Origin: a phage
Length of the DNA: 64,000 nt
Sequence record: PV946933.1
Reading direction: 5' to 3' (one strand)
Shown here: in pieces, positions 1,131 through 49,772 of the stretch
Position numbering within the stretch: position 1 is the first letter of the stretch
How the letters are laid out: the number at the start of each line of letters is the position of its first letter
Notes under the pieces: model-generated
Databases searched by the model: none
The model's input: only the letters and a program-made list of their open reading frames with translations
What the model was told of the DNA's origin: nothing
Made by a program: the position numbers and the translations under genes

Positions 1131-1160
1131 GTTTACTTTTCCTCTTGACTGTGGTATAAT
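1131..1160 (+). promoter_or_regulatory. T4-type early promoter
   Basis: GTTTAC-N18-TATAAT; flanked by inverted repeat 1139-1151 / 1169-1181 whose downstream arm contains the RBS. Confidence 0.7.
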
Positions 1161-2202: not shown

Positions 2203-2536
2203 AATTTTGGTTTTATGTGTAGGATTAATTTCATTTTCTGCGTTAGCAGATATATCATATTCTGAAGTTAGAGAGTATGTAAACCGTACTGCCGCGGATT
2301 ATTGCGGGAAAAATAAAGCATGCCAAGCTGAATTTGCGCAGAAATTAATATATGCATATAAAGACGGAGAAAGAGATAAATCAAGCAGATACAAAAATGA
2401 TACTTTATTAAAACGATATGCTAAAAAGTGGAATACCTTAGAATGTTCAGTTGCGGAGGAGAAAGATAAAGCCGCTTGTCATTCAATGGTTGACCGTTTG
2501 GTAGATTCTTATAATCGAGGATTGAGTACTAGATGA
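2195..2536 (+). CDS. secreted/periplasmic small protein with signal peptide and cysteines
   Basis: N-terminal hydrophobic signal MTKILVLCVGLISFSALA; several Cys. Confidence 0.5.
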   Translation: MTKILVLCVGLISFSALADISYSEVREYVNRTAADYCGKNKACQAEFAQKLIYAYKDGERDKSSRYKNDTLLKRYAKKWNTLECSVAEEKDKAACHSMVDRLVDSYNRGLSTR

Positions 2537-3012
2537 TTGTAAAATATATCAAGGGCGATATTGTCGCCCTATTTCTTCAAGGTAATATTATTGCGCACGG
2601 GTGCAATTGCTTCCACACAATGGGCTCTGGCGTAGCAGGTCAATTAGCAAAAGCCTATCCCAAAATTTTAGAAATAGATAAAACCACTACCGAGTACGGT
2701 TCTCGTGATAAATTAGGCGATATGTCTATTGTTTTTAAACACAGTCCTATAGGATTTGGTATATGCTATAACCTTTATACGCAATACGAACCGGGTCCTA
2801 ATCTTGATTATGGTGCTTTAGTAAACTGCATGATAGAATTAAATCTACAGGCAGAGACCCTTTTGTTTAAACCAGTAATTTATATTCCACGCATAGGTTG
2901 CGGTATTGCTGGCGGCGATTGGGATAAGGTTTCTAAATTAATCGACATGTTTACTCCTGATATTGATTTAATAGTGGTGGATTATGAAAGTACATTACCC
3001 GCATCCGTTTGA
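2533..3012 (+). CDS. macrodomain protein (ADP-ribose binding/processing fold)
   Basis: Motifs KGDIV...NIIAHGCNCFHTMGSGVAGQ and IYIPRIGCGIAGGDWDKV match macrodomain signature regions (GDIT...NAAN...GGGV / FPxISTGxYG). Confidence 0.65.
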   Translation: MIVKYIKGDIVALFLQGNIIAHGCNCFHTMGSGVAGQLAKAYPKILEIDKTTTEYGSRDKLGDMSIVFKHSPIGFGICYNLYTQYEPGPNLDYGALVNCMIELNLQAETLLFKPVIYIPRIGCGIAGGDWDKVSKLIDMFTPDIDLIVVDYESTLPASV

Positions 3013-3196
3013 TCCTAAAAACAAAGCAGAAATTATTCGTCAATGGGAACGCATTTGCCGTACTAAATGCCCAATTAATAGTTCTCATGATGTAGATAAA
3101 GACTATATTGGAACATTCGTTGAATATACCTTTATTGATAGGAAAGGTCGTAAACAACATGTAGAAGAATATTGCTTAAAGGTTACATGGTTATGA
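2984..3196 (+). CDS. hypothetical small protein (70 aa)
   Basis: ORF only. Confidence 0.35.
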   Translation: MKVHYPHPFDPKNKAEIIRQWERICRTKCPINSSHDVDKDYIGTFVEYTFIDRKGRKQHVEEYCLKVTWL

Positions 3197-3378
3197 GTCT
3201 GAGTAAAGAACAAAAAGATAAATTGTTTGAGCTTATCCATGAACTTCTAGATGAGCATACAGAAGCAAACACCTTTTATGATGAATACGGCCCGCTATCT
3301 CCCGAACAGCAAGAAGAATTTGCTGATCGGTTTGATAAGAAAGAAAATGAATTAATAGCTTATGTGAATACGCTTTAA
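3172..3378 (+). CDS. hypothetical small acidic protein (68 aa)
   Basis: ORF only. Confidence 0.4.
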   Translation: MLKGYMVMSLSKEQKDKLFELIHELLDEHTEANTFYDEYGPLSPEQQEEFADRFDKKENELIAYVNTL

Positions 3379-3387
3379 GAAGGTGAT

Positions 3388-3969
3388 ATGGCGAGTTTAA
3401 TTTTTACTTATGCAGCAATGAATGCTGGAAAATCTGCTTCTCTTTTGACTGCTGCACATAATTATAAAGAACGCGGAATGAGTGTATTAGTTCTTAAGCC
3501 TGCTATTGATACTCGCGATTCTGTCTGTGAAGTCGTTTCTCGCATTGGAATTAAACAGGAAGCGAATATTATCACGGATGATATGGATATTTTTGAGTTC
3601 TATAAATGGGCTGAAGCACAAAAAGATATTCATTGCGTATTTGTAGATGAAGCCCAGTTTTTAAAAACTGAACAGGTACATCAATTAAGCCGAATTGTCG
3701 ATACATATAATGTTCCTGTTATGGCTTATGGTCTAAGGACTGATTTCGCCGGAAAATTATTTGAAGGTTCTAAAGAACTTTTGGCGATTGCGGATAAACT
3801 TATTGAACTAAAGGCAGTTTGTCATTGCGGTAAAAAAGCGATTATGACAGCTCGATTAATGGAAGATGGAACACCAGTTAAAGAAGGTAATCAAATCTGT
3901 ATTGGTGATGAAATTTATGTTTCTTTGTGTAGAAAACATTGGAACGAATTAACTAAAAAGCTCGGTTAG
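3388..3969 (+). CDS. tk: thymidine kinase
   Basis: 193 aa; P-loop NAGKSAS; C-terminal zinc-binding cysteines CHCGKKA...C; matches T4 Tk length and organisation. Confidence 0.92.
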   Translation: MASLIFTYAAMNAGKSASLLTAAHNYKERGMSVLVLKPAIDTRDSVCEVVSRIGIKQEANIITDDMDIFEFYKWAEAQKDIHCVFVDEAQFLKTEQVHQLSRIVDTYNVPVMAYGLRTDFAGKLFEGSKELLAIADKLIELKAVCHCGKKAIMTARLMEDGTPVKEGNQICIGDEIYVSLCRKHWNELTKKLG

Positions 3970-41921: not shown

Positions 41922-42218
41922 ATGAAAAAATTTGTTTTTGCTGCAATTTTTGCTTTGGCTTCTTGTGCTGCTCAGCCTGCTATGGCGGGTTATGATAAAG
42001 ATTTGTGCGAATGGTCTATGACTGCAGATCAGACTGAGGTTGAAACTCAAATTGAAGCAGATATTATGAATATCGTTGAGCGTGATCGCCCTGAAATGAA
42101 AGCTGAAGTACAAAAACAGCTTAAGTCTGGTGGTGGTGTAATGCAGTATAATTATGTTTTGTATTGCGATAAAAACTTCAATAATAAAAATATCATCGCT
42201 GAAGTGGTAGGTGAATAA
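41922..42218 (+). CDS. sp: periplasmic Spackle protein
   Basis: 98 aa with signal peptide MKKFVFAAIFALASCAAQPAMA; recalled T4 Sp. Confidence 0.7.
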   Translation: MKKFVFAAIFALASCAAQPAMAGYDKDLCEWSMTADQTEVETQIEADIMNIVERDRPEMKAEVQKQLKSGGGVMQYNYVLYCDKNFNNKNIIAEVVGE

Positions 42219-42230
42219 TTAGAGGTTAAT

Positions 42231-42587
42231 ATGTATAGTTCTGAATTTTCATATTTAAAAATGGAAAAAATTTCATACGATTTTATAGATGAAAAGGTTT
42301 ATTACAGCTTCCATGAACCGCGTTTTAATAGTGAGGTTGGGTTTATTGTAGTAAAAGACAATTTCATTTTAAAAATATATTCGGCATTAAAGGATTTTCA
42401 CTACGAAAATATTAACCTAAAATTTGATAAAGAAAACGTTCGTAATTGCGCAGTAACAATTACAGGAAATAAAGATACATGCGTTATGCTATCTGATGAA
42501 ATTAATGATTTGCTAAATAATGCAGAAAAGATTACCGTTCCATCGATTGATGACCAAATTTTTAACGCTTTTATGAATAGAGGTTAA
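42231..42587 (+). CDS. 61.2-type protein (position of the anti-DarT factor AdfA in T-even phages)
   Basis: 118 aa ORF between sp and 61; assignment by position only. Confidence 0.4.
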   Translation: MYSSEFSYLKMEKISYDFIDEKVYYSFHEPRFNSEVGFIVVKDNFILKIYSALKDFHYENINLKFDKENVRNCAVTITGNKDTCVMLSDEINDLLNNAEKITVPSIDDQIFNAFMNRG

Positions 42588-42755: not shown

Positions 42756-43784
42756 ATGTCATCGATACCTTGGATTGATAATGAGTTTGCATACCGTGCA
42801 TTAGCTCATTTACCTAAATTCACACAAGTAAATAATAGTTCAACTTTTAAATTACGGTTTAGATGCCCTGTTTGTGGAGATTCAAAAACCGACCAAAATA
42901 AAGCCCGTGGATGGTATTACGGTGATAATAATGAAGGAAATATTCATTGCTATAACTGTAACTATCATGCACCAATCGGAATATATTTAAAGGAGTTTGA
43001 ACCTGATTTATATCGTGAGTATATCTTTGAAATAAGAAAAGAAAAAGGTAAAAGTCGTCCAGTAGAAAAACCTAAAGAACTTCCTAAACAACCCGAGAAA
43101 AAAATAATTAAATCTCTTCCGTCATGCATTAGATTAGATAAACTGGCGGAAGACCATCCAATTATAAAATACGTAAAAGCTCGTTGTATTCCAAAGGATA
43201 AATGGAAATATCTTTGGTTTACAACCGAATGGCCTAAATTAGTTAATAGCATAGCGCCAGGAACATATAAAAAGGAAATACCTGAGCCTCGTCTTGTTAT
43301 TCCAATTTATAATGCTAATGGAAAAGCTGAGTCTTTTCAAGGACGCGCATTAAAGAAAGATGCTCCCCAAAAATATATCACCATCAAAGCTTATCCTGAG
43401 GCAACAAAAATTTATGGTGTTGAACGAGTTAAAGATGGTGATGTATATGTTCTAGAAGGACCTATAGATTCACTTTTTATTGAAAATGGTATAGCTATTA
43501 CGGGTGGTCAATTAGACCTAGAAATTGTTCCATTTAAAGATAGACGTGTATGGGTTTTAGATAATGAACCTCGTCATCCTGATACTATTAAACGAATGAC
43601 TAAATTAGTTGACGCAGGAGAAAGGGTTATGTTTTGGGATAAATCTCCCTGGAAATCAAAAGATGTTAATGATATGATTAGAAAGGAAGGTGCAACCCCT
43701 GAACAAATTATGGAATATATGAAAAATAATATTGCCCAAGGGTTGATGGCTAAAATGCGGCTATCTAAATATGCTAAGATTTAA
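42756..43784 (+). CDS. 61: DNA primase gp61
   Basis: 342 aa; N-terminal zinc ribbon CPVCGDS...CYNC; TOPRIM-like core. Confidence 0.92.
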   Translation: MSSIPWIDNEFAYRALAHLPKFTQVNNSSTFKLRFRCPVCGDSKTDQNKARGWYYGDNNEGNIHCYNCNYHAPIGIYLKEFEPDLYREYIFEIRKEKGKSRPVEKPKELPKQPEKKIIKSLPSCIRLDKLAEDHPIIKYVKARCIPKDKWKYLWFTTEWPKLVNSIAPGTYKKEIPEPRLVIPIYNANGKAESFQGRALKKDAPQKYITIKAYPEATKIYGVERVKDGDVYVLEGPIDSLFIENGIAITGGQLDLEIVPFKDRRVWVLDNEPRHPDTIKRMTKLVDAGERVMFWDKSPWKSKDVNDMIRKEGATPEQIMEYMKNNIAQGLMAKMRLSKYAKI

Positions 43785-48523: not shown

Positions 48524-48549
48524 AGCTTCTGAAGTATATGGAGGCTATC

Positions 48550-49173
48550 ATGATTATTAATCTTGCAGATGTTGAACAGTTATCTATAAAAGCTGAAAGT
48601 GTTGATTTTCAATATGATATGTATAAAAAGGTCTGTGAAAAATTTACTGACTTTGAACAGTCAGTTCTTTGGCAATGTATGGAAGCCAAAAAGAATGAAG
48701 CTCTTCATCGGCAGTTGAATAAAATCGTTAAAAAGCATTTAACTGAATCACCTTATCAGTTATATCGTGGTATATCAAAATCGACAAAAGAACTCATTAA
48801 AGATTTACAAGTTGGAGAAGTGTTTTCAACGAACAGAGTAGATTCATTTACTACTAGTTTGCACACAGCATGCGGTTTTTCTTATGCTGAATATTTCACT
48901 GAAATAATATTTCGCTTAAAAACTGATAAAGCTTTTAATTACTCTGACCATATCAGCGATATTATACTTTCTTCTCCTAATACTGAGTTTAAGTATACAT
49001 ATGAAGATACTGATGGATTAGATTCAGAACGTACTGATAACTTAATGATGATTGTGCGTGAACAAGAATGGATGATTCCAATTGGAAAGTATAAAATAAC
49101 TTCTATTTCAAAAGAAAAATTACACGATTCATTTGGAACATTTAAAGTGTATGATATTGAGGTAGTTGAATGA
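48550..49173 (+). CDS. modB: ADP-ribosyltransferase ModB
   Basis: 207 aa from ATG 48550; ART motifs R (YRGIS), S-T-S-like, E-x-E (EQEWMIP). Confidence 0.8.
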   Translation: MIINLADVEQLSIKAESVDFQYDMYKKVCEKFTDFEQSVLWQCMEAKKNEALHRQLNKIVKKHLTESPYQLYRGISKSTKELIKDLQVGEVFSTNRVDSFTTSLHTACGFSYAEYFTEIIFRLKTDKAFNYSDHISDIILSSPNTEFKYTYEDTDGLDSERTDNLMMIVREQEWMIPIGKYKITSISKEKLHDSFGTFKVYDIEVVE

Positions 49174-49772
49174 AATATTCAGCAATGCAATTAAAAGATT
49201 TTAAAATCAAATCAATGGATGCATCGGTGCGTGCTTCTATTCGTGAAGAATTACTTTCTGAAGGATTTAATTTATCTGAAATTGAACTTTTAATTCATTG
49301 TATTACTAATAAGCCAGACGATCATTCTTGGTTAAATGAAATAATCAAATCTCGTTTGGAACCAAACGATAAACCTCTTTGGAGAGGTATTCCAGTTGAG
49401 ACTAAGCAGGCGTTAAATCAAGGAATTGATATTATTACATTTGATAAAGTAGTATCAGCTTCATATGATAAAAATATAGCTCTACATTTTGCTTCTGGAT
49501 TAGAATACAATACACAAGTTATTTTTGAATTCAAAGCTCCTATGGTATTTAATTTTCAGGAGTATGCTATAAAAGCTCTACGTTGTAAAGAATATAGCCC
49601 AAGTTTTAAGTTTCCGGATAGCCATCGTTATCGTAATATGGAATTAGTTTCAGATGAACAGGAAGTAATGATACCAGCTGGAAGTGTATTTAGAATTGCA
49701 GATAGATATGAGTATAAAAAGTATTCAACATACACTATCTATACTCTTGACTTTGAAGGATTTAATCTATAA
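49170..49772 (+). CDS. modA: ADP-ribosyltransferase ModA
   Basis: 200 aa; ART motifs R (WRGI) and E-x-E (EQEVMIP). Confidence 0.8.
   Translation: MKYSAMQLKDFKIKSMDASVRASIREELLSEGFNLSEIELLIHCITNKPDDHSWLNEIIKSRLEPNDKPLWRGIPVETKQALNQGIDIITFDKVVSASYDKNIALHFASGLEYNTQVIFEFKAPMVFNFQEYAIKALRCKEYSPSFKFPDSHRYRNMELVSDEQEVMIPAGSVFRIADRYEYKKYSTYTIYTLDFEGFNL

Follow-up and report, generated by a model that had tools for sequence, protein, structure and literature searches.

The DNA analysed here, hereafter the window, is a 64,000-nucleotide stretch of a phage genome (sequence record PV946933.1) and represents the early region of a Tequatrovirus, a T4-like phage. Many T4-like phages of Escherichia and Shigella match, at 98% identity, the 3.1 kb that surround the ORF at positions 2533–3012 on the forward strand, and the gene order is that of T4: vs.6(grcA-like)-...-regB-vs.1-vs-[ORF]-tk.3-tk.2-like-tk-rI.1-rI. 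In the window, this ORF lies between vs and tk.3, where T4 has tk.4; its start codon and the stop codon of the preceding ORF overlap (ATGA). The two preceding genes are vs.1 (1657–2202) and vs (2195–2536). A scan for the consensus only identified a sigma-70-like promoter match upstream of regB (TTTACT-17-TATAAT with TG; 1132–1160, forward strand), among promoter-like sites whose total is no higher than in shuffled sequences. The genes downstream of this match lie on the same strand and overlap or abut, and the match is a candidate start of a regB-vs.1-vs-tk.4-tk.3-tk.2-tk transcript. At the left end of the window, T4 vs.6 (Y06I) has its ortholog in the ORF at 8–370, which encodes a GrcA/YfiD-like autonomous glycyl-radical cofactor with a Pfam Gly_radical match (E 2.2e-18) and an RVSGY motif.

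In the preliminary description, the two ORFs preceding the gene of interest (1657–2536) were thought to encode secreted proteins, one of them with lytic-transglycosylase-like motifs, and to indicate an envelope-directed module. Signal-like N-termini are indeed present in both, and Vs.1 has a weak match to the SLT (lytic-transglycosylase) family (23.4 bits). However, these ORFs are the T4 early genes vs.1 and vs, no functional tie between them and the macrodomain was found, and the proposed link to an envelope module is not supported. By eye, the N-terminus of Vs resembles a cleavable signal peptide (MTKILVLCVGLISFSALA/D), as does that of T4 Vs. Vs is a modifier of the cytoplasmic valyl-tRNA synthetase, and a secreted Vs is hard to square with this textbook role.

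Other parts of the window also differ from T4 and its relatives. Approximately 373 bp that are present in most close relatives, comprising two small ORFs including tk.1, are missing between the tk.2-like ORF and tk, giving a compact spacing (3191–3388 in the window versus 3188–3762 in one relative) that is shared with Shigella phage SH-2; tk.2 of the window is just 54% identical to T4 tk.2. In a comparison with positions 1–64 kb of T4, the genes without a counterpart in the window were b-gt, segF, mobB, mobC, mobD, I-TevII, 60.1, 49.3 and tk.1. Five of these (segF, mobB, mobC, mobD and I-TevII) are homing endonucleases, and the absence of b-gt (beta-glucosyltransferase) suggests glucosylation of the T2/T6 type. 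Strong divergence from T4 was also observed for nrdC.3 (61%), 55.3 (72%), the dCTPase gene 56 (74%) and mrh (77%).

The ORF at 2533–3012 encodes a free-standing protein of 159 amino acids that is a real macrodomain and more than a chance motif match. The Pfam Macro profile (PF01661) matches it with 31.1 bits, above its gathering cut-off of 22 bits, over profile positions 2–117 of 118, and PHROG 335 matches with E 6.6e-72. An AlphaFold2 model built from a 65-sequence alignment (mean pLDDT 94.3, pTM 0.89) has the three-layer alpha/beta/alpha macro fold, including the glycine-rich ADP-ribose-binding loops 1 and 2 (MGSGVAG at residues 30–36 and GCGIAGG at 122–128). The macrodomain call made earlier from two motifs, which are present at residues 8–37 and 116–133, is thus borne out by profile searches and structure prediction alike, and the predicted structure contains both the fold and the loops on which that call was to be judged. 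For the structural classification that had been proposed as a check, the nearest structural neighbours place the protein in the ALC1-like/TARG1/DarG/Poa1p class, rather than among MacroD, PARG or viral-type macrodomains.

The preliminary description had missed the identity of this ORF with the known T4 gene tk.4. The window protein and T4 Tk.4 are 58% identical over 155 amino acids (BLASTP E 4e-70), and the ORF is a member of the T-even AdfM (T4 tk.4) orthologous group. The two proteins share the locus between vs and tk.3, the length class, the fold family and the invariant pocket residues, including a glutamine discussed below; they differ in length (155 amino acids in T4, 159 in the window) and in loop 2 (RIGAGIGKGNW in T4 versus RIGCGIAGGDW). 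The T4 gene has long been annotated in RefSeq as 'phosphatase; contains A1pp phosphatase motif', and in other records the gene at 2533–3012 is named 'macro domain-containing protein', 'Poa1p-like family protein' or 'RNase III inhibitor'.

The putative ADP-ribose pocket was delimited from alignments and from conservation among 121 family members. Loop 1, H22-G-C-N25-C-F-H-T-M-G-S-G-V-A-G-Q37, is encoded at 2596–2643 (forward strand); H22, G23, N25, C26, G33 and A35 are kept in 119–121 of the 121 members, H22 and N25 align with H24 and N27 of Streptomyces coelicolor SCO6735, and N25 also aligns with N23 of the AdfM protein of phage PhiKZ. Loop 2, the diphosphate-binding glycine-rich motif P119-R-I-G-C-G-I-A-G-G-D-W130 (2887–2922, forward strand), has P119, G122, G124 and W130 invariant or nearly so, and equals the 'PRIGCGLAGGxW' of SCO6735 and Bacteroides BT1257 but for one I/L change. 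N80 and Y82 are likewise invariant across the 121 members, and so are the loop-1 and loop-2 glycines.

Between the two loops, a CAA codon (2782–2784, forward strand) encodes Gln84, which falls in the catalytic-lysine column both in the sequence alignment and in a profile alignment against PDB structures. Gln84 aligns with the catalytic lysines of DarG (K80, in 'PTK') and TARG1 (K84), and with Gln85 of SCO6735. All 121 relatives have glutamine in this column and none has lysine; glutamine is common to the window protein, T4 Tk.4, BT1257 and SCO6735, while DarG, TARG1 and PhiKZ gp104 carry a T-K motif there. The column of the TARG1 catalytic D125 is A126 in the window protein. By its aligned residues, T-even AdfM is a Gln-type, lysine-less macrodomain like SCO6735, and not of the DarG type implied by the comparison in the preprint that named it.

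SCO6735, an ALC1-like macrodomain without the catalytic lysine, is more efficient than DarG or TARG1 at removing the thymidine-ADP-ribose made by DarT, and it protects cells from DarT; its Q85A and Q85E mutations abolish thymidine-ADPr hydrolysis, and a water-mediated mechanism of substrate positioning was proposed (PMC9411070). Its activity has been confirmed on synthetic substrates (PMC12879935). The window protein resembles SCO6735 (PDB entry 5E3B; BLASTP E 2e-13, 26% identity) in the glutamine at the DarG K80 position, the loop-1 histidine and asparagine, the PRIGCG(I/L)AGGxW loop 2 and its free-standing state with no adjacent DarT. However, K34 of SCO6735 corresponds to S32 in the window protein (alanine in 95 of the 121 relatives), and the loop after Q84 is 6–7 residues shorter than the mobile loop of SCO6735 and has no equivalent of K89. 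K34, K89 and the extended mobile loop have been linked to the high DNA activity of SCO6735 and are said to define a subclass (PMC9411070), so that the window protein has the glutamine, loop-1 and loop-2 features of the SCO6735 type but not these three. A further difference is that SCO6735 is a bacterial chromosomal protein, whereas the window protein is the product of a phage early gene. BT1257 (2AFC/2FG1), which shares the glutamine and loop 2, is an uncharacterized relative.

The remaining members of the structural class are further removed. DarG (Thermus aquaticus 5M31/5M3E and Mycobacterium tuberculosis 5M3I) is 19–21% identical to the window protein; it has the catalytic Lys80, a C-terminal DarT-binding domain and a darT neighbour, whereas the window protein has none of these, with Gln84 in the lysine position and its C-terminus at residue 159. 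The DarG equivalog model NF048014 of NCBIfam gives 28.1 bits, far short of its cut-off of 250 (model positions 2–142 of 338), and the PADLOC DarG model gives 27.5 bits (positions 3–144 of 329). By analogy, T-even AdfM would work like DarG, yet it is not DarG. In human TARG1/OARD1, the catalytic dyad K84/D125 corresponds to Q84/A126 of the window protein, and yeast Poa1p has been characterized as a small-molecule phosphatase. No darT was found next to the ORF at 2533–3012, the neighbours of which are vs and tk.3, and no DarT neighbour was found for homologs in one bacterial chromosome (Pelagimonas) and two phage contigs. For the idea that the gene was captured as an antitoxin from a DarTG operon, these contexts are too few to be conclusive: the Pelagimonas homolog stands alone, and the other two are phage contigs. 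Separately, a metagenomic phage contig encodes a distant Tk.4-family macrodomain at 1541–1888 and an Acb5-family (anti-CBASS) protein a few kilobases away, a hint that anti-defence genes are clustered in that phage.

The gene in the window is a divergent allele relative to T4. The DNA is 100% identical to T4 up to position 2570; divergence starts at 2571, identity is 49–64% over 2622–3003 and returns to 87–94% from 3004, and the wider flanks are 96–100% identical, so that sliding identity delimits an allele cassette at 2571–3003 (forward strand). The median protein identity between the window and T4 is 96.7% (101 T4 genes with good coverage in the 64 kb), and Tk.4 falls within the four retained genes that diverge most. 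Two classes can be distinguished. Class A, with 159 amino acids and loop 2 RIGCGIAGGDW, includes the window, GADU22, L14, SH-2, Kelasse, Nami, Bas38 of the BASEL collection and JoYop. Class B, with 155 amino acids and loop 2 RIGAGIG[K/G]GNW, includes T4, T2 and Mosigvirus PNJ-6. The classes are 57–58% identical at the amino-acid level. Roughly 359 phage records contain class-A-like DNA (at least 80% identity) and roughly 397 class-B-like DNA; the second class, A, is present in about half of the sequenced T4-like phages.

Class membership does not follow the flanking genes. Tk.4 of Gaprivervirus VR25 is 90% identical to the window protein and belongs to class A, whereas its flanking proteins are only 66% (Vs.1), 42% (Vs) and 71% (Tk.3) identical to those of the window; Tk.4 proteins of T4 and Mosigvirus PNJ-6, both of class B, are 85% identical. 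Within class A, tk.4 is under strong purifying selection (dN/dS 0.03–0.18), its dS is above that of its neighbours and most of the DNA polymorphism is synonymous. Because dN/dS within the class is low and the classes are shared across genera against the flanking genes, the sequences point to old alleles that moved as cassettes between genera and not to rapid diversification. Diversifying selection as the source of the 58% identity was ruled out by the dN/dS values, the mostly synonymous polymorphism and the inter-genus cassette pattern. At the left cassette junction, a terminator-like scan found an 8-bp GC-rich hairpin (AGGGCGAT-ATT-GTCGCCCT) in codons 7–13 of tk.4 (2552–2570, forward strand), identical in T4 and GADU22 and followed by a T-rich run. 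It ends exactly where the classes begin to diverge and may mark a recombination junction or lie there by coincidence; a regulatory role was discarded, as the fold of the 76 nt around it is not significant (z of just −1.73).

The function of tk.4 has already been described for the T4 ortholog. In the HIDEN-SEQ preprint of November 2025, growth of a T4 transposon library on DarTG2-expressing E. coli gave tk.4 as the sole significant hit, and a clean knockout sensitized T4 to DarTG2. T4 can do without the gene on plain K-12 and requires it only when DarTG2 is present; it was named adfM (anti-DarT factor Macrodomain), and hydrolysis of DNA ADP-ribose by its product 'seems likely' according to the authors (bioRxiv 10.1101/2025.11.20.689424). 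T4 lacking both adfA and adfN stays resistant to DarTG2 (PMC11825919), and the tk.4/adfM result fills the gap left by that observation. T2, which carries class B, is also DarTG2-resistant (PMC11825919). The DarTG2 evidence, namely the T4 knockout and the resistant T2, covers class B only; DarTG2 data for Bas35–47, sought for phages bearing class A, were not found in the literature. Furthermore, no biochemical assay of a Tk.4 protein was found in the literature searched.

The ORF at 2533–3012 is probably a divergent-class ortholog of T4 tk.4/AdfM that acts as an 'orphan antitoxin'-type enzyme and hydrolyses the thymidine-ADP-ribose adduct made by DarT2. During infection, host DarTG2 would release DarT2, an enzyme that ADP-ribosylates the thymidine of TNTC motifs in single-stranded DNA of the phage and blocks replication. 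The early-expressed, free-standing macrodomain would bind the ADP-ribose adduct and hydrolyse the N-glycosidic bond to the base, thereby restoring replicable DNA. Gln84 would replace the catalytic lysine of DarG and TARG1, as Gln85 does in SCO6735; because it holds that position, the chemistry is most likely of the SCO6735 type, through water-mediated substrate positioning. This reading combines results of the present analysis, namely the macrodomain fold, the family assignment, the gene position shared with T4 tk.4 and the conserved pocket residues, with the published knockout phenotype of T4 tk.4 on DarTG2 and thymidine-ADPr hydrolysis by a Gln-type relative. The window allele, at 58% identity, would be expected to share the activity of T4 AdfM, its action is presumed by analogy to be hydrolysis rather than binding, and its expression is presumably early as well. 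Counting against the proposal, the genetic evidence concerns class B and comes from one preprint, whereas the window allele is of class A; the SCO6735 features reported to be important for DNA activity are absent; and the DarG equivalog score is far below its cut-off in a protein that has no DarT-binding C-terminal domain. Among the functions offered in the preliminary description, the countermeasure to DarT-like DNA ADP-ribosylation is supported by the genetics of the syntenic T4 gene, and the remaining options are not supported.

Other phage proteins counter DarT as well. PhiKZ gp104, also named AdfM, removes DarT2-made ADP-ribose from DNA in vitro, and its N23A mutation cuts activity (PMC13309987, Cell Rep 2026). 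Like the window protein, it is phage-encoded and free-standing and has a conserved asparagine (N23 in gp104, N25 in the window), and it counters DarTG2, as the window protein presumably does. However, gp104 keeps the 'PTK' catalytic lysine of DarG, matches DarG at E 9e-25 and is imported into the phage nucleus. BLASTP aligned just 23 residues of the window protein with gp104 (E 0.001), and a profile comparison confirmed remote homology (95.8% probability). Judged from these alignments, the two 'AdfM' proteins belong to different macrodomain subfamilies, and a single name covers two independent acquisitions that converge on one counter-defence. ICP1 AdfB and RB69/T4 AdfA bind the toxin (PMC11825919 for AdfA). 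T4 AdfN (gp30.3) likewise exemplifies the 'orphan antitoxin hydrolase' principle (PMC11825919) but has a NADAR fold, is guanine-specific, counters DarTG1 and not DarTG2, and is encoded outside the window. T4 AdfA (gp61.2), a T-even anti-DarT factor, binds DarT1; its locus in the window holds a 118-amino-acid ORF (42231–42587), 32% identical to the 208-amino-acid T4 protein, between sp (41922–42218) and the primase gene 61 (42756–43784), and this ORF is the most divergent retained gene of the 113 compared with T4.

Removal of the DarT2 adduct was weighed against other explanations. DarT2 could instead be neutralized mainly without catalysis, through 'interaction-inhibition', in which the toxin is bound, or because ADP-ribosylated DNA is shielded or read, with the allele classes tracking DarT2 variants. 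Although catalytically dead, the Q85A mutant of SCO6735 retains an inhibition of DarT in vitro that exceeds that of the DarG and TARG1 mutants (PMC9411070), and AdfA and AdfB set a precedent for countering DarT by binding. The window protein lacks the catalytic lysine, and two deep allele classes exchanged between genera would be unexpected for a toxin-agnostic enzyme. Nevertheless, we regard such a mechanism as improbable: the SCO6735-type catalytic pocket (H, N, Q and the glycine loops) is invariant across the 121 relatives, which argues for retained enzymology, strong purifying selection within the class leaves no sign of surface diversification and the 159 residues include no DarT-binding domain. 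It is similarly unlikely, though slightly less so, that the main substrate is an ADP-ribose conjugate of another host system, such as uracil-ADP-ribose in RNA or Glu/Asp-linked ADP-ribose on protein; DarTG2 protection would then be one activity among several or a property of the T4 class only. Uracil-ADPr on RNA is a further substrate of TARG1, DarG and SCO6735 (PMC13036486), SCO6735 and TARG1 cleave Glu/Asp-ADPr on proteins (PMC9411070), and the window carries the class to which the DarTG2 evidence does not extend. However, a bacterial defence that ADP-ribosylates uracil in RNA was not found in the literature searched, the modification of adenine by CmdT is irreversible and T-even phages are still CmdTAC-sensitive (PMC11618068), and the sole recorded phenotype of tk.4 concerns DarTG2 (bioRxiv 10.1101/2025.11.20.689424).

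The phage might also use the macrodomain to erase or read its own Alt, ModA and ModB marks, as had been suggested from the presence of ModB- and ModA-like genes. These genes are confirmed at 48538–49173 and 49170–49772 by PHROG 832 and synteny (a Pfam search of the two ORFs gave no match), and hence the phage makes ADP-ribosylated host proteins. Alt and the Mod enzymes modify arginine, however, and cleavage of Arg-ADPr is unreported for the ALC1-like, TARG1, DarG and SCO6735 relatives in the literature searched; the substrates of the closest characterized relatives are ADP-ribose N-linked to thymidine or uracil and Glu/Asp-linked ADP-ribose (PMC9411070, PMC12879935, PMC13036486). Together with the distance of about 46 kb between the unlinked genes and the need for T4 tk.4 only in the presence of DarTG2, this chemistry makes a role in Mod-directed erasure or reading extremely unlikely, and that part of the preliminary description is not upheld. 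Scarcely more credible is a small-molecule enzyme, that is, an ADP-ribose-1''-phosphate phosphatase ('A1pp phosphatase') or O-acetyl-ADP-ribose deacetylase that clears by-products of RNA repair or sirtuins; these names derive from homology, and the DarTG2-specific phenotype would be left unexplained. Moreover, we know of no source of Appr-1''-p in T4 infection, because repair by T4 Pnkp/Rnl leaves no 2'-phosphate.

Returning to the DarT2 adduct as the probable substrate, a doubtful but possible extension is that the two allele classes, each taken to be maintained by purifying selection and exchanged as a precise cassette among Tevenvirinae genera, are functionally non-equivalent, with class A tuned to another DarT2 variant or ADP-ribosylated substrate (for example, uracil-ADPr RNA) or adding toxin binding. 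If so, counter-defence specificities would be kept as a balanced polymorphism at the tk.4 locus, on the basis of a lysine-less mechanism that would be new for phage enzymes.

DarTG systems stop phages by ADP-ribosylating phage DNA, and the gene at 2533–3012 is an already known counter-defence gene against them. As the T4 role has been published, the present finding mainly confirms good annotation; what it adds to the T4 literature is the proposed lysine-less chemistry at Gln84, the second allele class with its inter-genus cassette exchange and the extension of the name AdfM over two subfamilies. The layered T-even countermeasures AdfA, AdfN and AdfM are relevant to host range in phage therapy, and the T-even anti-DarT factors are relevant to ADP-ribose 'eraser' chemistry.
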